Virus record (IMG/VR): IMGVR_UViG_3300033067_000326
Location: 1-40,418 of that record
Source: a virus
Taxonomy: Duplodnaviria > Caudoviricetes
Direction: 5' to 3' (one strand)
Length of the DNA stretch: 40,418 nucleotides
The translations under genes were made by a program, and so were the position numbers. The notes under the pieces were generated by a model. That model saw nothing but the letters and a program-made list of their open reading frames with translations, was not told where the DNA came from and searched no databases. Positions 1,906 to 39,749 of the stretch are shown here, one piece after another. Positions within the stretch are counted from its first letter, which is position 1. Each line of letters opens with the position of its first letter.

Positions 1906-2495
1906 AAGAAGTGATTATATTTGATGACTTATTGCCGCAAGGCTATGCAGACCAACTCGAAGCCGACTTAATGAGCATGCCGTTTCCGTGGCATTACATT
2001 GACGATGTAACTAACCAAAGCTACGGGTCCAACTCGGGTTTTGCTCATCTAGCATTTGACTTAGGTAAGCAACCCACCGAGTGGTACCAATTTCTTAAAC
2101 CGATTGTGTATCACATTGAAGAAGTTCAGGGCAAGCGTATGCTTGAGCTTTTGCGTATCCGAGTTGGGCTACTAATGCCGACTACGGAAGCTGACTACAG
2201 TCACAATACCCCGCATGTGGATTTTACATTCCCACACTACACTGCCTGTTACTATGTCACTGACAGTGACGGCGATACAGTTGTATTTGATCAGGCGTTA
2301 ACTGATGCCAAGTTGGACAACGTCACAGAGCAGGGTATAGTTGATTATGTAAAAGGCACCGAGTTCACAGTGCTAGGGCGAGCAAGCCCGAAGAAGAACA
2401 GTGTATGTATATTCGATGGACTAAAATTCCATGCGAGTACTAAACCAAAACATCACAGTAGAAGAATCGTAATAACAATTAACTATGTATCATAA
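1902..2495 (+). CDS. 2OG-Fe(II) oxygenase superfamily protein
   Basis: 197 aa; PHVD (HxD), distal FHAS His, RIVITIN (2OG-binding Arg); ATGA overlap with upstream gene. Confidence 0.75.
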   Translation: MKEVIIFDDLLPQGYADQLEADLMSMPFPWHYIDDVTNQSYGSNSGFAHLAFDLGKQPTEWYQFLKPIVYHIEEVQGKRMLELLRIRVGLLMPTTEADYSHNTPHVDFTFPHYTACYYVTDSDGDTVVFDQALTDAKLDNVTEQGIVDYVKGTEFTVLGRASPKKNSVCIFDGLKFHASTKPKHHSRRIVITINYVS

Positions 2496-4110
2496 TATCA
2501 AATCAATTTGTATCGTGGGCGGTGGTAGCAGTGGGTGGATGACAGCCGCAGCAATCTCTAAGATGTTGCCCGACATGGAACTAACATTGGTAGAAAGCTC
2601 GGCTATCCCCACAATTGGCGTGGGAGAAAGTACAATTGGGCACATTAATCAATTCCTAACAATGCTGGGTCTTAAAGATGAAGACTGGATGGCAGCGTGT
2701 AATGCCACGTACAAGACTAGTATCAAGTTTATTGACTTTAGGGACAATCCTGGCGAGCAACCTCATAAGTTCCATTACCCGTTTGGTATCTTTGACTTCT
2801 CGGACAAACCACGTGGTGCAATGGAATGGTTTTTAGCCGCAGCGGACCGCGGCGACATTGATCCAAGTAACTTTGCAGAGTTTTATCATGATGCAATTTT
2901 AATGACTGATCAAAACAAACTAACAAAGAACGAAGACTTTAAGATTCGCGGATTTAAGTTTAAGCAAGACACAGCGTATCACATGGATGCAGCTTTGTTT
3001 GGAAACTATTTGCGCGATAATCTCTGCTTGCCATTTGGTATGACACATATCGTTGATACGGTTGATCGAGTAGTACAACGTGAAGACGCAAGCATTGAAA
3101 AGATTGTTACCAAAGAAGGTAAGCACATCCACGCAGATTTGTTTATTGATTGTAGTGGCTTTAGAAGCATATTGTTGGATCAAACACTAAACGAACCGTT
3201 TGTTAGTTTCCACGACACGTTATTAAATGACCGTGCAGTTGCAACAGTTATTCCGTATATTGACAAAGATGCAGAGATGGAAAACTACACATCGTGTACA
3301 GCCATTGAGGCTGGATGGGTTTGGAACATCCCGTTATGGAATCGAATCGGTACCGGGTATGTTTACAGTAGCAAGCATGCAACAGAAGAAGAAGCAGAAG
3401 CTCAGTTCCGTAAACACTTGAAAAGCAATCGCATGATTTTCCCTGATGCAGCACGAGCAGATGAGTGCGAAGTGCGTCACATTAAGATCAAGCATGGTGT
3501 ACATCAACGTGCATGGGTCAAGAATGTTGTTGGGATCGGGCTTGCAAATGGATTCATTGAGCCACTTGAGAGCACAGGACTGATGCTAACTCACGAAGGC
3601 ATTATCAAACTTGTTAGTGCGTTACTGATGCGTAAAGGTCGGGTAAGCAACTACGATGTTGACTTGTTTAACTTTGGATTCCAGGAACAGATTATCGGGT
3701 TTAAGGACTTTATTAGTCAACACTATGCGTTGAGTATGCGCAATGATACGCCGTATTGGCAAGAAGTCTCTGGTAAGGTAACTTACTCACACGGCATGAA
3801 CGGTACTGAAAACTTGGCTGGGTTTAGTCATGGAGCCCAATCTCGCACAGACTTGGCATTTAGGTTGCATCGTAATCGCATGTTTGACCAAGGCATGGGT
3901 GGTATCATTTACATTGCAGCGGGAATGGGATACAATCCAGTAGAATCAAACTTCTTGCGCCACGAAGACGAAAGAGTGCATGAGAGCCCGGAAATGCGAG
4001 CACCTGTGTACGAGAATTGGCTAAAACATAAAGAAGAAGTGCTTGAGCATATCAAGACATTACCGACTCACTACGAATTCCTACGCGATAATATCTATAA
4101 TTCCAAATAA
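2485..4110 (+). CDS. Flavin-dependent tryptophan halogenase family protein (PrnA-like)
   Basis: 541 aa; VGGGSSGW FAD motif, IGVGEST, CNATYKTSIKF (catalytic Lys position), FIDCSGF, WVWNIP (WxWxIP), FIEPLESTG. Confidence 0.9.
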   Translation: MYHNIKSICIVGGGSSGWMTAAAISKMLPDMELTLVESSAIPTIGVGESTIGHINQFLTMLGLKDEDWMAACNATYKTSIKFIDFRDNPGEQPHKFHYPFGIFDFSDKPRGAMEWFLAAADRGDIDPSNFAEFYHDAILMTDQNKLTKNEDFKIRGFKFKQDTAYHMDAALFGNYLRDNLCLPFGMTHIVDTVDRVVQREDASIEKIVTKEGKHIHADLFIDCSGFRSILLDQTLNEPFVSFHDTLLNDRAVATVIPYIDKDAEMENYTSCTAIEAGWVWNIPLWNRIGTGYVYSSKHATEEEAEAQFRKHLKSNRMIFPDAARADECEVRHIKIKHGVHQRAWVKNVVGIGLANGFIEPLESTGLMLTHEGIIKLVSALLMRKGRVSNYDVDLFNFGFQEQIIGFKDFISQHYALSMRNDTPYWQEVSGKVTYSHGMNGTENLAGFSHGAQSRTDLAFRLHRNRMFDQGMGGIIYIAAGMGYNPVESNFLRHEDERVHESPEMRAPVYENWLKHKEEVLEHIKTLPTHYEFLRDNIYNSK

Positions 4111-4119
4111 ATATTGGAT

Positions 4120-4851
4120 ATGATTAACAAACTCTATAGAACAAATTATGGTGGTGAACTGATAGTAAACAGTTCAACCTACTCCAACGGTAAGTGGGAA
4201 TTTGATAAGGAGTTTGTTTATTCTATTATGTCGCCACAACAATTTGGTAAGAGTGCGTTGGTAATAGGGAATGGCATCAGTAGATCAAAGTTTGACCTGT
4301 CTTACATTAAGAATCATAAGAATGGTTCAATTGCAGCAGGCGCATTAAAAACATACGGGTGCAATGCATTATATCGAGACTATACTCCGCATTTCTTAGT
4401 AGCAGTCGGTAAAGAGATAACACAAGAGATTGTTGAGTCCCGCTACACTGAACAGAACATTGTGTATGCTCCAACGGTATCGCATGTTGCCCATCCGCAC
4501 AAGTTCTATAGAATCCCGCAAGATCCAAATTGGCACGCCGGTGCAATTGCAGCATACATGGCATGCTTCGACGGGCACAGCAAAGTTTACCTATTAGGGT
4601 TCGATGGAATTGATTCAGTTAGTCACAGTTACAATCTATACGAAGGCACAAACGGATATGCTGCTTTGCCTTATGGGTATAGTGAAGAATTCTGGGTGCA
4701 AGCAATGACTGAAGTTTTTAGCACATACTCTGAAGTAGAGTTTGTGAGAGTAGCGCCAAATCGAGATTATAGAATTCCTGAAGCATGGAAGTATGTAAAG
4801 AACTTCCGTCAAATTGACTTCAACGAGTTTGCCACTGAAGCAGACTTATAA
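4120..4851 (+). CDS. Maf/DUF115-like (glycosyltransferase-related Rossmann fold) protein
   Basis: LVIGNGISR, YGCNALYRD, G.IAAYMA..G..KVYLLGFD; start moved to ATG 4120, 6 nt after ATAAATA at 4107-4113. Confidence 0.55.
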   Translation: MINKLYRTNYGGELIVNSSTYSNGKWEFDKEFVYSIMSPQQFGKSALVIGNGISRSKFDLSYIKNHKNGSIAAGALKTYGCNALYRDYTPHFLVAVGKEITQEIVESRYTEQNIVYAPTVSHVAHPHKFYRIPQDPNWHAGAIAAYMACFDGHSKVYLLGFDGIDSVSHSYNLYEGTNGYAALPYGYSEEFWVQAMTEVFSTYSEVEFVRVAPNRDYRIPEAWKYVKNFRQIDFNEFATEADL

Positions 4852-5268
4852 AACGTGCTCTAACGTTTTAATTTTATCTAATATGCTTTGAAAATTGAAT
4901 GTGCGCCAGACACCTGGGTGCAACGGCTTTGGGTGGTCGTTGACGCTAGTCCATGCATACCCACGATGCTCGTGATTTAGTTCTGGAACAAACTCACGGT
5001 CTACACAGATCAAGTATGTGTGGTACTCGAATTTGGCATTGTCGCTGGTAAAGTGTTCGAGCGGAATAACTTTACTGTAGGATACAGTGCCAATCTCTTC
5101 GGTGATTTCTCTAGTTAGTGCCTGTGCAGGGGTTTCGTTAACTTCGACTTTGCCGCCTACTAATCCCCAATGGCCGTTATGCTTGTTCCCATTTCGCAAC
5201 AGGAACAAGTATCGTTTTGTTTGCTTGCTATAGAATAGTGCGCCTACGCCTACAGTATGATTGACCAT
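4846..5268 (-). CDS. NUDIX hydrolase
   Basis: Nudix box GGKVEVNETPAQALTREITEEIG. Confidence 0.9.
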   Translation of the reverse strand: MVNHTVGVGALFYSKQTKRYLFLLRNGNKHNGHWGLVGGKVEVNETPAQALTREITEEIGTVSYSKVIPLEHFTSDNAKFEYHTYLICVDREFVPELNHEHRGYAWTSVNDHPKPLHPGVWRTFNFQSILDKIKTLEHVL

Positions 5269-6635
5269 TCGCCTTCTCGATATACTCCCTCAATTGACTT
5301 GGTCCACTGACCGCCTAGCCATTTGTATTGAGTATTAGTAGTTAAGTTTGTTACATATTCTACTTGAGAGTGTGTGGTGCTGTCAAGGCTTACAGTCCAG
5401 TTTGAACCATTATATTGAATGATGTCGTTTGCGTGAGCAATTAAGCTGCCCCATGCCACGCTAGAACTTCCGGTTTGCCCGATGTCTTCTAGGATTAGAT
5501 ATCTAGTGCCAGTTGCAGGAGTCAACAAGTTAAGTTGATCTACGTTAACTGTTTGTGGATTAATAACAGCGTTAATTGGCGACAGTGTATTAGCTGGCGC
5601 AGTGTCAGTGTCGACGGTAAACAGTAATAACGTATCGTCGGTTGGGTGATATGCAACAGTGCCGACTAGCTCAGTTAAATTAGTGTATCCAACAGTCTCA
5701 TCGTACTCCGATGCTAACTGCAATCGAACTTGACTAATGCCGTCCTGCAAGCTGCCGTACATGTCAATGAGCGTGTGCCATGCATCCGCAGTACCTACCT
5801 TATCAGTTTGTTCTGCATTAACTAACTCGGACTTCTTGATTAGTTTTAAGGTATTGCCAACAAACAATACGCCGTATCCTAGAGGCGTAAGCATTTTCCG
5901 TGCTAGTAAATTGCTTTCTAGCAAACTGTTCTCATCAATGTTACCATTTGCATCAAATATGCTGGTAATAATTTTATGCACAACACCTAGTTGTTTAACT
6001 TTTGCAGGGCTACTGATCCAAATTGGAATCTCAAAAGTCATGGTATAAATGTCAATTGGCTCTTCAGTCCCAGTTGGCACACTTCGTCCTGTCCAATTAG
6101 TATCGGTTAAGGTTACTGTGCTTAAACTAGTCCAGTCAATGTAGTTGTCTGTGCTTTGGATCTCTAAGCTAGGATTAAAGATTGCACCAATCTGTTCAAA
6201 CAGTTGTAGCTTTTGCTCAGTATTACTGGTCCAAATGTCTAGCTTCAGTGTCATTTTGTAAGGCACCGGCATCATGCGTTCGATTGTGTACGCAGAATCT
6301 TGGGTAGTCCCGTATTCGCCTGTGGTTGGGTTGTAGCTCTTTTGACGGATCTGCATCTTGCCCACAAAGGACGGATCTTGTGTGCGGCTTTGATCGTATT
6401 GCATACCGCTAATATATGCAGCCATTGCGGGCACAGCGTTTAATGTGTTTTCACTGTTATTGCGTAAGATCATTGCAGCTTGTCTACTTGCATCACCGTA
6501 ATATACAGGAACACGTTGCAAGACAGTTTGTCCGTTACGATCCTTTCCAAACTCCACTTGGAAGTTACTCATCATGCGTATGAATTGAGTCAAGAATCGA
6601 CGTACTTGTCCGTCATAGTGAAATTGAGTAGCCAT
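5250..6635 (-). CDS. gp15: Tail terminator/sheath stabiliser, T4 gp15-like, with C-terminal extension
   Basis: N-terminal FHYD.QVRRFLTQF..M.SNFQV, RVPVYYG, MPVPYKMT.KLDIWT, QL.EQI...FNP; adjacent to gp14-like gene. Confidence 0.7.
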   Translation of the reverse strand: MATQFHYDGQVRRFLTQFIRMMSNFQVEFGKDRNGQTVLQRVPVYYGDASRQAAMILRNNSENTLNAVPAMAAYISGMQYDQSRTQDPSFVGKMQIRQKSYNPTTGEYGTTQDSAYTIERMMPVPYKMTLKLDIWTSNTEQKLQLFEQIGAIFNPSLEIQSTDNYIDWTSLSTVTLTDTNWTGRSVPTGTEEPIDIYTMTFEIPIWISSPAKVKQLGVVHKIITSIFDANGNIDENSLLESNLLARKMLTPLGYGVLFVGNTLKLIKKSELVNAEQTDKVGTADAWHTLIDMYGSLQDGISQVRLQLASEYDETVGYTNLTELVGTVAYHPTDDTLLLFTVDTDTAPANTLSPINAVINPQTVNVDQLNLLTPATGTRYLILEDIGQTGSSSVAWGSLIAHANDIIQYNGSNWTVSLDSTTHSQVEYVTNLTTNTQYKWLGGQWTKSIEGVYREGEWSIIL

Positions 6636-32438: not shown

Positions 32439-32511
<73 letters not shown>

Positions 32512-34503: not shown

Positions 34504-34595
34504 AGGAGCGTAGTTTAACGGTAAAACAGCGGATTTATATCCCGTGTGCAACAGATAATTGGCCAATGTCGGTTCGACTCCGGCCGCTCCTACCA
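34504..34595 (+). tRNA. tRNA-Ile(UAU)-like with 22-nt variable region
   Basis: AGGAGCG/CGCTCCT, D stem GTTT/AAAC, GCGGA-TT-TAT-AT-CCCGT, GTCGG-TTCGACT-CCGGC, A-CCA. Confidence 0.8.
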
Positions 34596-35860: not shown

Positions 35861-35895
35861 TTTGTCAAAAAGATAAATAAATTTGTCGACAGAGG

Positions 35896-35924
35896 TTGAC
35901 ACAAAAGGTAAATAAATATACAAT
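35896..35924 (+). promoter_or_regulatory. Strong sigma70-like promoter with embedded late promoter
   Basis: TTGACA-17 nt-TACAAT; ATAAATA at 35912-18. Confidence 0.8.
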
Positions 35925-35931
35925 AGGACTT

Positions 35932-36078
35932 ATGATGCAAAACACATTTAATCATTCGCTAAAACAACAACAGCCCGGATTAGGCATGTCAGCCTATTGG
36001 TCTTTGTTTGCGACGATTAATAGTGATCGCGCACCAGAGATTCGACCAGGGTTCCAAGAAGGAGCAGGTTACGCATAA
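35932..36078 (+). CDS. Putative attenuator leader peptide (48 aa)
   Basis: ATG 7 nt after the -10 box; codons 39-42 (CCAGGGTTCC) complementary to the 5' arm of the downstream terminator. Confidence 0.65.
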   Translation: MMQNTFNHSLKQQQPGLGMSAYWSLFATINSDRAPEIRPGFQEGAGYA

Positions 36079-36099
36079 CGCATAACAAGCACCCAAAAA

Positions 36100-36137
36100 G
36101 GAACCCTAGGATTAAAAACCCTAGGGTTTTTTGTTTT
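36100..36137 (+). terminator. Intrinsic terminator (attenuator)
   Basis: GGAACCCTAGG(36100-110)/CCTAGGGTTTT(36120-130) then TTGTTTT. Confidence 0.85.
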
Positions 36138-36148
36138 GTAAAGGAATT

Positions 36149-36307
36149 ATGAAGAAGATTGATTTAAAAAAACGTATGCGTGAAGTGAGGTTCGTTACTG
36201 AGAATGTACTAACCCCAGAACAACGTACAAAGTTGATTCAGGATAAGTTAGATCGTGCTCAAGTCGAGTTTGACAAACGCAAACAATTGAATCGAACTTA
36301 CGCATAG
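36149..36307 (+). CDS. Small basic protein (52 aa, absent from ORF track)
   Basis: AAGGA RBS; MKKIDLKKRMREVRFVTENVLTPEQRTKLIQDKLDRAQVEFDKRKQLNRTYA. Confidence 0.7.
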   Translation: MKKIDLKKRMREVRFVTENVLTPEQRTKLIQDKLDRAQVEFDKRKQLNRTYA

Positions 36308-36313
36308 TTTAAC

Positions 36314-36477
36314 AGTGTTAATAAGACCTATATGGCCAGGTAACGAGGACCTGAAAGAACACTATAATAATCTTTAAACGGGCGGACAGGATACATGAAT
36401 GGCATGGTGAGAACGTGCCGAGTAAGACTCCTGGTTAGGGTATTGACCCTAACATATCCAGCAGCAATGCTGGGTAT
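36314..36477 (+). ncRNA. Putative structured RNA (four adjacent stem-loops)
   Basis: AGTGTT/AACACT, CAGGA/TCCTG enclosing TGGCAT/GTGCCG, GTTAGGG/CCCTAAC, ATATCCAGCA-GCAA-TGCTGGGTAT. Confidence 0.5.
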
Positions 36478-36579
36478 TCTAAAACGTGCTAGATGAACAA
36501 TATATATATTTGAACCATATAATTATAGATCTTGCAGCACCGGTTAATGCAAGTTCGCCCTAGCACGTTTTAGAATACC
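36473..36579 (+). repeat. Perfect 20-bp inverted repeat enclosing 67 nt (putative RNA closing stem)
   Basis: GGTATTCTAAAACGTGCTAG (36473-92) / CTAGCACGTTTTAGAATACC (36560-79). Confidence 0.85.
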
Positions 36580-36738: not shown

Positions 36739-36822
36739 GGATGTTCGACGCAGTTGGAGAGGCGTGGCTGGCTGTAACCCAGTTCGTAAAGTGAGTAAGT
36801 TCGAATCTTACAACATCCACCA
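36739..36822 (+). tRNA. tRNA-Tyr(GUA)
   Basis: GGATGTT/AACATCC, GCTGG-CT-GTA-AC-CCAGT, long variable region, CCA. Confidence 0.85.
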
Positions 36823-36830
36823 AGTTTTAT

Positions 36831-37090
36831 TTCGTTGTAGTTTAGAGTGAGCAAAAAGGTAGCATTGAGTAGGTGAGATAATACATCTAGTAGCACAAAG
36901 TAGATAACAATCGCGTAGGCTGTAAAAAACCAAACACTGTGAGCCCGGGAAGTGCGGGACAGGTTGAAATGTGCAAAAAGTGGGATAAGGCATTGAGGGG
37001 ATGTGAGAATATTGTTCCGGAAGAACACAGGCACCCAGCATACGCGATTTTAGGCCTGAGACGTAGGTTCGAGTCCTACTAACGAAGCCA
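36831..37090 (+). ncRNA. 260-nt tRNA-shaped RNA with large D-region insertion and 21-nt anticodon loop
   Basis: TTCGTTG(36831-37)/TAACGAA(37080-86), G-CCA, T arm GTAGG-TTCGAGT-CCTAC, stem CAGGC/GCCTG. Confidence 0.7.
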
Positions 37091-37091
37091 G

Positions 37092-37240
37092 TTTTGAGAT
37101 AGACGGCACGATTGAGTCCCATTCTGCATAGCATACCGGCTGGTATGTGACAGCGCCAGTTTGCAGCTTATGGTAGTTTAAACTCTTGTGTACGAGACAA
37201 TCCAGTGAGTCCACCCAGGTGGATAGTTGGGCTCTCAAAA
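37092..37240 (+). ncRNA. Putative structured RNA between tRNAs
   Basis: TTTTGAGA/TCTCAAAA closing stem; nested GATTG/CAATC, CCAT/ATGG, CTGCA/TGCAG, GCATACC/GGTATGT, TCCAC/GTGGA. Confidence 0.55.
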
Positions 37241-37249
37241 ACCTTTTAT

Positions 37250-38138: not shown

Positions 38139-39749
38139 ATGAACGTATGTGTTATAGGTGCAGGATTCACGGGAATCTTAACTGCATTAATTCTAAAGAA
38201 AAATTGTCCCAGTGTAACTATTACACTAATTGACAGCAACAAAGAACCAAAGAATTTCGGATTTGGTGAGAGTGCGCCACCGGCGTTCATGACATGGCTG
38301 CTTAACTCACTAAAAGTTGCACCCGAAGAAAGATCGCAATGGGTCACCGATTGGTTAATTGGTACAAACAGTACATTTAAGTACAACCTAAAGTGGCAGA
38401 ATTTTACAAGTGCATCCGACGACGGATATGTAAGTGGTGTACGTGACATGCCTGATTTTAGGGCTATACTTGACGGAAGTCCGGTAGGTCACGGGATGGA
38501 CATTAACATCGCAAATCCAGACAACAATGCATATCGCATGTTTGACCTCTGGTACGAACTGTACAAGGCAGGGCACAGAAAGTTAGAAGACTTTCAACCT
38601 GACACCAATGACTTGTACTGGCTTTCTAAGAAAGGCAGAGTTCCTTACTACGAAGGCAGGTTTGTGTTTGACGTAATGAGCAGTCACATTAACTCATTTG
38701 AAGTGTGTGAATGGCTTAGAAACAAATACGGAGATATCATTGATACTGTTGTAGTAGACACTATCAAAGACATTGAGTTTACATCGTCTGGGGCGATTAA
38801 AGAATTGCACCTAGAGTCGGGTAATACCACAACAGCAGATTTTTACATTGACTGTACTGGTTTTAAGCGGTTAGTAGGTAACAAAGCCAACTTGCCATTT
38901 AAGCGTCCGGATACTGACATCTACCATGATTCGGTTACTGTAGTGGCAAACAGCTACACGGAAAACTTTGAGCAAGAGATGTTACCGCAAACAGTTGGAT
39001 ACGGAATGGACTATGGTTGGACCTTTTCTATTCCGTTGCTAAACAGAAAAAGTTACGGATACACTTACAATTCCCGGGATCTAACGCCCGACCAGGCACT
39101 GGAGGAATTGGCAACACTAAGCGATCCAGCAACTAGAGTCATTGAGCCTATACATTTAAAGTGGACTCCTGGAGGGTACACCACATCGTGCAAGGAAAAC
39201 TTTGCACTAGTTGGGCTAAGTGCAGGATTCGTTGATCCGTTTGATGCTAACACAATTGGTCTACAAGTAATACAGCTAAACAATTTAGTTGAATTTTTCA
39301 ATGACACAACAAAGCAGCATCTACAAGATCGTTACAATGAAGAAACATGGGGCTTGTTTAGCTCTGTGGCAGAGCGTGTCGAATATCATTTTGGACTAGC
39401 ACCAAGATCGACGTCACCGTATTGGGAACGTAATCATCAAGTTGCAAAGCACAAACGTTTAGAAGATGCAATCTTTGAAACGCTAAATGATTACAAGCAT
39501 TCTCCAGATGCTGAACGCCGTGGTCGATTTATACCGTATCGCAGTGCATTGTATCTAAGTGAGTTAGTGTACTTTGACATTGACATGAGCAGACGTTGCA
39601 GAAACTCTAATCCGTCGCTGTTAATGTTTGCCAAGGACTTTTTCAAGACCAATGCAAACTTAAACAGGGCAAGAGCAGAGTTATTTCCTACATTGTTGCA
39701 GTGGTACAAGATGAAAGGCATTGACTTAAAGCAATTAAACGGTCTATAA
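38139..39749 (+). CDS. Divergent flavin-dependent halogenase family protein
   Basis: 536 aa; IGAGFTG, FGFGES, STFKYNLKW, YIDCTGF, WTFSIP, FVDPFDANT; GAGG RBS and ATAAATA at 38111-17. Confidence 0.8.
   Translation: MNVCVIGAGFTGILTALILKKNCPSVTITLIDSNKEPKNFGFGESAPPAFMTWLLNSLKVAPEERSQWVTDWLIGTNSTFKYNLKWQNFTSASDDGYVSGVRDMPDFRAILDGSPVGHGMDINIANPDNNAYRMFDLWYELYKAGHRKLEDFQPDTNDLYWLSKKGRVPYYEGRFVFDVMSSHINSFEVCEWLRNKYGDIIDTVVVDTIKDIEFTSSGAIKELHLESGNTTTADFYIDCTGFKRLVGNKANLPFKRPDTDIYHDSVTVVANSYTENFEQEMLPQTVGYGMDYGWTFSIPLLNRKSYGYTYNSRDLTPDQALEELATLSDPATRVIEPIHLKWTPGGYTTSCKENFALVGLSAGFVDPFDANTIGLQVIQLNNLVEFFNDTTKQHLQDRYNEETWGLFSSVAERVEYHFGLAPRSTSPYWERNHQVAKHKRLEDAIFETLNDYKHSPDAERRGRFIPYRSALYLSELVYFDIDMSRRCRNSNPSLLMFAKDFFKTNANLNRARAELFPTLLQWYKMKGIDLKQLNGL

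Follow-up and report, generated by a model that had tools for sequence, protein, structure and literature searches.

The window analyzed here is a 40,418-bp phage contig from IMG/VR, taken at its full length, the completeness of which was estimated at 12% (CheckV). It carries genes encoding a T4-type large terminase, a tail sheath protein, and RecA/UvsX-, UvsY-, and SSB-like proteins, and the terminase shows 54% identity with that of the group of PA5oct, a 287-kb Pseudomonas jumbo phage. An array of 17 transfer RNA (tRNA) genes was identified by ARAGORN between positions 32439 and 40230. Inside this array, at 36831-37090 on the plus strand, lies a tRNA-shaped RNA gene of 260 nt, labeled X260 below, which begins 8 nt past the CCA of a tRNA-Tyr gene (36739-36822) and is directly followed on its 3' side by another conserved RNA, E160. 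The original prediction, made from the sequence, described this element as a tRNA mimic with a large insertion on the D side able to pair with its own oversized anticodon loop, and suggested that it might serve as a nuclease decoy, a ligand of the ribosome or EF-Tu, or a protein scaffold. According to the data presented here, X260 is very probably a real, expressed, non-decoding tRNA-shaped non-coding RNA (ncRNA).

The gene extends from base +1 to the encoded CCA, and these limits are supported by 30 homologues, by the scores of a covariance model (CM), and by the ends of RNA contigs in a relative. The acceptor stem (36831-36837/37080-37086) consists of six Watson-Crick pairs plus a G.U pair, and its 3' strand is followed by the discriminator G (37087) and the CCA (37088-90). 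Residues U8 and A9 (36838-39) lie between the acceptor stem and a D stem (36840-43/37023-26), the GTTT and GAAC strands of which pair across the insertion. A local partner, GTTC at 37014-17, had also been proposed for this stem; the long-range GTTT/GAAC pairing is the conserved one, whereas the local alternative is specific to the window and its bases pair in the arm helix I1. The D loop is split by the arm into two halves, AGAG (36844-47) and CGGAA (37018-22), the latter of which includes G18 G19 (37019-20). The equivalent of the anticodon arm consists of a CAGGC/GCCTG stem (37028-32/37054-58) and a 21-nt loop (37033-53), and is followed by a 4-nt variable loop (37059-62), the last base of which is C48, and by the T arm (37063-79; stem 37063-67/37075-79, loop TTCGAGT). 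The acceptor stem, the G-CCA end, the T arm, the variable loop, the stem with its 21-nt loop, and the inverted repeat described below were all found where they had been predicted, and the helices are kept in the 30 homologues.

The arm itself (36848..37018, 171 nt) is located in the D loop before G18 G19. It contains helices I1 (36850-55/37012-16), I2 (36862-66/37000-04), I3 (36872-75/36991-94), I4a (36893-97/36970-74), and I4b (36903-05/36963-65), in which 94, 97, 95, 87, and 100% of the alignment cells are paired, respectively. An imperfect direct repeat had been reported in this region: the pattern does occur twice in the window and in 0 of 100 shuffles, but the two copies are really the two strands of one quasi-symmetric, G.U-rich helix, in which GCATT (36862-66) pairs with GATGT (37000-04), and GGTG (36872-75) with CATT (36991-94). 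The repeat pattern was rejected as a wider motif, its lone match in IMG/VR (locus L008) being an unrelated GC-rich intergenic site. Beyond these helices, the arm carries one strand of a pseudoknot, AATCGCGTA-g-GCTG (36909..36922), the other strand of which, CAGC-a-TACGCGATT (37036..37049), belongs to the loop at the anticodon site. The two strands form a 14-nt inverted repeat with 93% complementarity, the duplex energy is -17.9 kcal/mol, and the 12 pairs involving 37037-37049 are 100% paired (n = 30). The pseudoknot had been described as two blocks of nine and four pairs: the first block holds, whereas the fourth G-C pair of the second block occurs only in the window and a few other sequences, most members showing 9 + 3 pairs. 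This strand is followed by an A-rich linker (TAAAAAACCAAACACTGTGAG, 36923..36943), which is nearly invariant in A3, a MAFFT alignment including the divergent sequence L066, and by an apical hairpin with a four-pair stem (36944-47/36955-58, 100% paired) and an invariant GGAAGTG loop (36948-54). The closing pair of this hairpin is U-A in 20 of the 30 sequences and C-G in the other 10. A CUGU/ACAG helix below the hairpin is broken in four sequences of the L054 clade and was hence kept out of the model, and the linker has no supported pairing; an alternative CACU/AGUG loop pairing suits this clade, but since it involves only a one-sided change and an awkward topology, it is not claimed here. As to the 37-codon open reading frame (ORF) predicted to cross the 3' half, it is indeed present in the window, but the ATG and at least 27 codons are kept in only 6 of the 30 homologues.

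The homologue set includes 30 distinct full-length sequences, obtained after removing duplicates, all of which come from jumbo-phage or metagenome contigs and measure about 255-260 nt. A pattern built on the 160-nt stretch downstream of X260 identified 57 loci in IMG/VR, eight of which hold full-length homologues showing 76-86% identity. With a pattern built on the conserved blocks of X260 itself, 14 IMG/VR and 23 metagenome loci were obtained, and the identical set of 14 IMG/VR contigs was recovered when the loop strand of the pseudoknot was left out of the pattern. No match was detected in a pattern scan of 185,579 prokaryote genomes, and the GenBank phages yielded T-arm matches but no homologue; in the databases, the 3' part most closely resembles phage tRNA-Gln genes, which likewise have G73. 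In the whole genomes of PA5oct and Phosso, where X260 was not found, there were only 17-19-nt matches, and an exact 28-mer of its 3' end gave 0 matches in IMG/VR. Relatives reached via a 393-aa neighbor protein (L002-L007) do not carry X260, and the 160-nt stretch just downstream of it is common to them. The window also includes two tryptophan-halogenase-like genes (2485-4110 and 38139-39749; Pfam PF04820, E 5e-113 and 2.5e-47), the second of which is inside the tRNA array, with tRNA-Gln on one side and tRNA-Val on the other; no relatives were obtained by searching via the halogenase-like neighbor.

The family is clearly delimited by its CM, with scores of 188.8-327.1 bits for the true members and at most 50.6 bits for ordinary tRNAs, which the model aligns end to end with the arm deleted. 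No match to a known family was found: ARAGORN makes no call at 36831-37090, Rfam 15 shows no match either at gathering scores or with the threshold relaxed to E = 10, and the tRNA model RF00005 does not match X260 even at E up to 10. In all 30 loci, X260 sits within a tRNA array, on the strand of the tRNAs. A tRNA gene starts 76-92 nt upstream of it in 17 of the 30, so that the end of this tRNA falls just before X260; the upstream tRNA differs among loci (Met, Tyr, Leu, Thr, Trp, Ile, Asp, Pro, Val, or Phe), and the 3' neighbor is a further RNA or tRNA gene rather than an ORF.

The structural model, which consists of 59 pairs in 11 helices, was evaluated on two alignments derived from the same 30 sequences: A3 and A6, the latter of which was made with a CM lacking the pseudoknot. 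In A3, 95.5% of the 1763 cells are paired, versus 86.0 +/- 0.4% in the shuffles, none of the 500 reaching this level, and 31 of the pairs had both sides changed, versus 18.2 +/- 2.0; when the partners were slid by 1-3 columns as a control, only 32-41% were paired. In A6, the corresponding values are 97.7% and 32 of the 59 pairs, and none of the 500 shuffles did as well on any of the five measures. RNAalifold applied to A3 found the acceptor, D, anticodon, and T stems plus a chain of long-range insert helices (48 pairs, 28 of which were compensatory), and a scan of all the column pairs gave the same helices plus the pseudoknot. The acceptor stem shows 100% pairing with four of its seven pairs changed on both sides, the D stem 100% with two of four, the anticodon stem 98% with three of five, and the T stem 100% with three of five, while 17 of the 22 helix pairs in the arm changed on both sides. 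The compensatory series include GUUU/GAAC, GAGU/ACUC, and GUGU/ACAC in the D stem, CAGGC/GCCUG, GGGGC/GCCCC, GUGGC/GCCAC, and CUGGG/CCCAG in the anticodon stem, and GUAGG/CCUAC, GCAGG/CCUGC, and GCAAG/CUUGC in the T stem; the acceptor stem is wholly rewritten in L066. In the pseudoknot, AAUCGCGUA/UACGCGAUU is replaced by AAACGCUUA/UAAGCGUUU in four sequences (L054, L025, L094, and L098). The covariation observed in the four tRNA stems and the pseudoknot bears out the central claim of the original prediction, that a D-side insertion is pseudoknotted to the oversized anticodon loop, and decay without compensation is absent from the 30 homologues.

The residues on which the tertiary structure of tRNAs depends were also found to be conserved in A3: U8, A14, G18 G19, and the T loop UUCGAGU (U54 U55 C56 R57 A58) are kept, and R15:Y48 covaries, G15:C48 being replaced by A15:U48 in L066. 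The acceptor-stem sequence UUCGUU(A/G) is common to 29 of the 30 sequences, the discriminator is G in 28, A in one, and U in one, and the base at -1 is U in all 30. Since the CCA is encoded in 29 of the 30, the CCA-adding step that had been predicted is unnecessary. The loop at the anticodon site measures 20-21 nt in every sequence, 12-13 nt of which are paired with the arm. As the 3' tail of the loop varies in register, a common 7-nt anticodon loop cannot be obtained by any contiguous deletion (n = 30).

As regards expression, most of the stretch is held by 14 DNA or likely-DNA runs from 11 studies, mostly on river, fresh, ground, and wetland water, and a small share of it by six RNA runs. 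The RNA data are assembled contigs, which were aligned to the window and to a relative, L013, in which the X260 copy is located at 5331-5587. In the window, short contigs from run X19, a freshwater metatranscriptome, cover 36861-37002 with depths of 2326-4993, the depth in this run being 66 for a tRNA-array contig of a relative; in run X15, a 200-nt contig is identical to positions 36853-37052. On L013, three 100%-identical contigs from run X19 cover X260 at 5331-5423 (depth 2325.6), 5440-5499 (3791.7), and 5470-5587 (863.9), and the flanks are covered at 4844-5251 (48.4) and 5558-6100 (35.6). In this one genome and run, the depth on X260 is therefore 18-107 times that of the flanks, an excess which DNA carry-over would not produce. 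The outermost contig ends correspond to base +1 and the A of the CCA, which is a good hint that these are the true ends. No contigs from run X16 were placed on L013, and the tRNA genes next to X260 that had no RNA cover in run X19 were not used as evidence. No spliced form was found among the RNA contigs: the deep X19 contigs run unspliced across the boundaries between exons and insert, and just two joints are listed, one in X20 and one in X18, with depths of 11-15, neither of them being present in the deep X19 contigs. There was no sign of self-cleavage in the RNA contigs either. X260 could be a substrate for RNase P and 3' trimming: it has a 12-bp acceptor/T-arm stack and an RCCA end, and contig ends at +1 and CCA were observed in one run. 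The conserved tertiary bases, the location in tRNA arrays, and the RNA contigs running from +1 to CCA all agree with the prediction of a tRNA-shaped RNA that is matured like a tRNA.

Among six related jumbo-phage genomes, X260 is present as a single copy in four complete or near-complete ones of 353-385 kb (G001, G004, G005, and G006). It was detected neither by BLAST nor with the CM (0 matches at E up to 1e-11 in 674,680 nt) in G002 (100% complete) and G003 (92%). G003 and G004 show 91.5% identity over 280 kb, and X260 is exactly missing from G003, where the flanks abut at 56790/56791. Given its single copy in the carriers and its exact absence from a close relative, X260 is a modular, accessory, tRNA-like gene. 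A comparison of the gene content of the four carriers and the two non-carriers, based on tblastn searches with 469 ORFs of G004, did not bring out any dedicated phage protein partner: the one ORF present in all four carriers and neither non-carrier is NUMOD3 homing-endonuclease-like, and the other ORFs which differ between the two sets are of the HNH type or of no recognizable kind. NUMOD3- and HNH-type ORFs (G004 220990-221679, 295495-295896, 181339-181977, and 2119-2664) make up most of the annotatable differences in gene content. ARAGORN calls one permuted (two-piece) transfer-messenger RNA (tmRNA) in each of the six genomes, with tags such as ANDSQFLMVA. The number of tRNAs it calls is 14 in G002 and 46-54 in the other five; a tRNA with the amber-reading anticodon CUA is present in five of the six.

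X260 can be compared with several known systems. With canonical class I tRNAs (RF00005), it shares the 7-pair acceptor, 4-pair D, 5-pair anticodon, and 5-pair T stems, as well as U8, A14, R15:Y48, G18 G19, UUCGAGU, a 4-5-nt variable loop, and the discriminator plus CCA; the location in the array, the tRNA-like spacers, and the RNA ends at +1 and CCA are also the same. It differs from them in the 171-nt D-loop arm, the overall length of 255-260 nt, the 20-21-nt loop involved in a pseudoknot of 12-13 bp without any U33 or anticodon loop, and the fact that neither ARAGORN nor RF00005 detects it. The tmRNA (SsrA) likewise combines an acceptor/T-arm end with a large pseudoknotted insertion. In tmRNA, the D stem and the anticodon stem are absent, their place being taken by helix P2 and SmpB, and the molecule has a G3:U70 pair and a tag reading frame. 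X260, by contrast, has both stems, a 3-70 pair which is C3-G70 in 29 sequences and U-A in one, and no conserved frame, and the genomes bearing it have a separate tmRNA; the prediction that it is not tmRNA-like was therefore correct. The occurrence of tmRNA in large phages has been mentioned elsewhere (PMC7162821).

In the T-box riboswitches, Stem I has been described as an RNA "caliper" acting on the anticodon and elbow of the tRNA (PMC4919913). The geometry of X260 would be similar, by analogy only, in that a single RNA arm contacts a tRNA body both near the elbow and at the anticodon site; the arm of X260 differs in being covalent and in cis, and in pairing over 12-13 bp, versus three in the T-box. 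Rfam searches at E up to 10 gave no T-box match at X260, and there is no regulated gene downstream. YrlA and other Y-RNA-like RNAs, mascRNA, the tRNA-like structures of plant viruses, and the T4 stable RNAs species 1 and 2, the latter of which are located in the tRNA cluster of the phage, rely on their tRNA shape to be processed or to bind the enzymes that act on tRNAs. They are non-decoding, as X260 appears to be, and no sequence or Rfam relation between them and X260 was found at E up to 10; to our knowledge, none of these mimics combines a complete cloverleaf with a D-loop arm clamped on the anticodon site. As to intron-bearing tRNA genes, bacterial group I introns reside in the anticodon loop, whereas archaeal bulge-helix-bulge introns also occur in D loops. 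Extra sequence interrupts a tRNA gene in these cases as in X260, in one of them at the D loop, but the insert of X260 is retained in the abundant RNA, and joining the exons would still leave a loop of 20-21 nt. Archaeal tRNA introns, including a D-loop case, are dealt with in PMC3241643. No description of an RNA of this type was found in the open-access literature searched, and Rfam contains no such family. X260 is a new architecture within the broad kind of tRNA mimics.

How X260 may act can be outlined as follows. It would be excised from the array transcript at +1 by RNase P and trimmed at its encoded CCA by the host tRNA 3'-end nucleases, in keeping with its 12-bp acceptor/T-arm helix, its U at -1, and its GCCA end. 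It would be unable to decode, since an anticodon loop is absent and the site is locked in a helix of 12-13 bp. With its anticodon side clamped, it would escape enzymes that bind the anticodon as well as anticodon nucleases. The acceptor end and a large part of the tRNA body would stay exposed and be offered to tRNA-binding factors; these surfaces might then occupy a host factor that attacks or consumes tRNAs. A role as a decoy or sponge for such a factor is our leading guess, and a tentative one, drawn by analogy. It fits an abundant, accessory RNA with no phage partner, found in phages with 46-54 tRNAs, a tmRNA, and a tRNA with a CUA anticodon. It also fits the growing list of tRNA-targeting defenses and of the phage tRNAs answering them, as presented in several reports (PMC10264068, PMC11555353, PMC12851939, PMC13056530, PMC12409363). 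Taken as a whole, the explanation that X260 is a conserved tRNA-core RNA acting by tRNA mimicry, likely as a decoy for host tRNA-targeting defense nucleases, is plausible but falls somewhat short of an even chance.

Several points weigh against this explanation. The decoy role is a guess resting on analogy, and the partner search bears on a small, phylogenetically confounded sample. Covariation in the pseudoknot amounts to two pairs in a single clade, the other 10 of the 12 pairs being invariant, and part of one strand was fixed by the search pattern with which the homologues were gathered. The core of about 80 nt formed by the pseudoknot, the linker, and the hairpin hardly varies, even in L066 with its rewritten tRNA stems, which suggests that the arm has a partner or an activity of its own and that X260 does more than simply mimic a tRNA. 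Covariation does not discriminate between pairing in cis and pairing from one molecule to another. The minimum free energy of X260 (-58.1 kcal/mol, z = +0.27) is unexceptional, 120 of 200 shuffles folding equally well; the nested comparative model has an energy of -30.6 kcal/mol, or -44.7 on constrained refolding, to which the pseudoknot duplex adds about -17.9. On the RNA side, the depths come from contigs of one run and are a coarse measure, with one figure per contig in which k-mers common to several strains are summed; such libraries capture tRNAs poorly, and a variant contig in run X18 extends 34 letters past the CCA.

The strongest rival to the decoy reading, and itself a possible one, takes the core of the arm (36903-36965 plus the loop strand) to be the functional unit, which would bind a protein, a small molecule, or an RNA, or would be catalytic, the tRNA serving as a handle. 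The tRNA core would then supply excision by RNase P, defined ends, and stability, as engineered tRNA scaffolds do. The core of the arm is indeed almost invariant in all 30 sequences, including L066 with its rewritten acceptor and arm helices, while the scaffold helices vary freely with compensation; the apparent abundance of X260 is high, and a second tRNA-like RNA of these phages has a hairpin with the shared GGGAAGUG loop motif. However, the core matches no riboswitch or ribozyme in Rfam at E up to 10, the RNA contigs give no sign of self-cleavage, no phage protein co-occurs, and the tertiary bases plus the near-identical acceptor stem in 29 of the 30 sequences exceed what a processing handle needs. 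It is unlikely that X260 is charged by a host aminoacyl-tRNA synthetase in an anticodon-independent manner and acts via EF-Tu or the ribosome, or as a non-translational donor of amino acids. The intact acceptor/T-arm helix, discriminator G, and CCA, the strong conservation of UUCGUU(A/G) in 29 sequences, and the resemblance of the 3' part to phage tRNA-Gln genes with G73 are consistent with this idea; such anticodon-independent identity elements as G3:U70 (C3-G70 being present in 29 of the 30), a long variable arm, and G-1 are absent, however, no transferase or synthetase gene co-occurs with X260 in the comparison of four carriers with two non-carriers, and L066 has altered both the acceptor stem and the discriminator.

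Another reading, to which we give slightly less weight than to charging, is that the pairing of 12-13 bp forms between molecules, giving dimers or closed rings that show several tRNA ends, like the RNA-only assemblies formed by ROOL and GOLLD. In such a self-assembling, tRNA-displaying particle, the arm strand of one copy would pair with the loop of the next, and the rings would present the CCA ends and the invariant core. Covariation is blind to the difference between the two modes, and the arm has some 55 stacked layers per strand (36850-36905/36963-37016), by our estimate about twice the distance from the elbow to the anticodon in a tRNA, so that a simple clamp in cis would need sharp bends; GA-rich internal loops could nevertheless provide these bends, and the fold in cis is entropically favored. 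Phage-associated ornate RNAs forming homo-oligomers have been described in PMC12286853. It is very improbable that X260 is a decoding tRNA interrupted by introns, which in the window would give a tRNA-Lys(UUU) after the loss of 171 nt + 14 nt. The loop in the window does end in ATTTTAG, which would form a Lys-UUU loop, and ARAGORN calls no tRNA-Lys there, but the loop tails (UUUUAG, UUUAA, UUUUGA, UUUGAA, etc.) do not give any common 7-nt loop, the relatives have separate tRNA-Lys genes, Rfam shows no group I or II intron match at E up to 10, and the deep RNA contigs are unspliced across the boundaries, the two joints of depth 11-15 belonging to other runs. The intron-bearing tRNA-Lys(UUU) was rejected on these grounds, the relatives having no common 7-nt loop and the RNA contigs retaining the insert; an archaeal bulge-helix-bulge intron is also unlikely, given the unspliced abundant RNA and the bacterial-type phage relatives. 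The least probable reading of all is that of a rescue RNA of the tmRNA type, or of a tRNA pseudogene in decay in which the insertion is junk. It would account for tRNA-like ends around a large pseudoknotted insert, but each of the six related genomes has a separate permuted tmRNA and ARAGORN finds none at X260, the G3:U70 pair and a conserved frame are missing, and X260 has both a D stem and an anticodon stem. Decay is excluded by the compensation in the helices and by the abundance of the RNA, as far as sequence analysis can go.

The tRNA arrays of these phages include other unannotated RNAs. E160 (37091-37249 in the window) is a conserved structured RNA of about 160 nt which starts 6-9 nt past the CCA of a tRNA or of X260. 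The loci fetched contain 53 distinct copies; RNAalifold applied to 36 of them gave 23 pairs, 12 of which were compensatory, and the invariant blocks are GAUAGACG, AGUCCC, CGAGACAAUCC, and GAGUCC. E160 has no match in Rfam, and it is covered by RNA contigs in runs X18 and X19. In the window, the intergenic region 35867-36500 shows 68-72% nucleotide identity to relatives in which the flanking protein is only about 40% identical. A sigma-70 promoter close to the consensus lies at 35896-35924, and a strong hairpin of the terminator type around 36102-36128; the region also includes a small ORF (about 60 codons) and further conserved RNA-like blocks immediately before the tRNA array. The idea that this region might be a single large ncRNA was discarded in view of the alignment, in which the promoter, the terminator, the small ORF, and shorter conserved RNA-like blocks appear instead, and there is no Rfam match.

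Some of the genes in these clusters are themselves unusual tRNA look-alikes. A tRNA-Ile(UAU)-like gene with a long variable arm (about 15-27 nt) is present at 34504-34595 in the window and at L014:2281-2395(-), L042:909-1023, and L050:4502-4615. A second insertion-bearing look-alike, of about 120 nt, has an acceptor stem, D arm, T arm, and CCA, with about 65 nt replacing the anticodon arm (L025:2259-2393; L054:4363-4497(-); L022:271-407(-); L070:1363-1499(-)). A third one, of about 140 nt, is found on contigs bearing X260 (L090:286-442(-); L080:5652-5808; L069:780-936(-)) and has an acceptor stem, T arm, and CCA around an insert of about 110 nt, one hairpin of which carries the GGGAAGUG loop motif of the apical hairpin of X260. 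Homology between this third look-alike and X260 was not retained, the global alignment giving z = 2.7 with only short motifs in common. Lastly, the region L013:4641-4930, located between two called tRNAs, contains a tRNA-like gene missed by ARAGORN (GUU anticodon loop) and an unannotated stretch of about 190 nt, which is kept in L057 and L025 and part of which (4800-4873) is covered by an RNA contig with a depth of about 500 in run X19.

Phage tRNA clusters thus hold several unannotated structured RNAs, such as E160 and the insertion-bearing look-alikes, which tRNA finders skip. What is new in the case of X260 is the set of RNA contigs with matching ends, the exact presence or absence of the gene in close relatives, and the negative search for a protein partner. 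The fold is well defined by covariation, and this natural tRNA scaffold may serve RNA engineering. If it were true that X260 pairs in trans, it would be an RNA-only machine made by a phage, akin in principle to the ROOL and GOLLD cages but built from a tRNA. Non-decoding tRNA-shaped RNAs such as tmRNA, the Y-like RNAs, and the tRNA-like ends of viruses have each opened up new biology. Based on its location in the tRNA arrays of jumbo phages related to PA5oct, its gain and loss as a unit, and its apparent abundance in a metatranscriptome, X260 is a candidate for a new RNA-based strategy in the competition for tRNAs that opposes phages and bacterial defenses.

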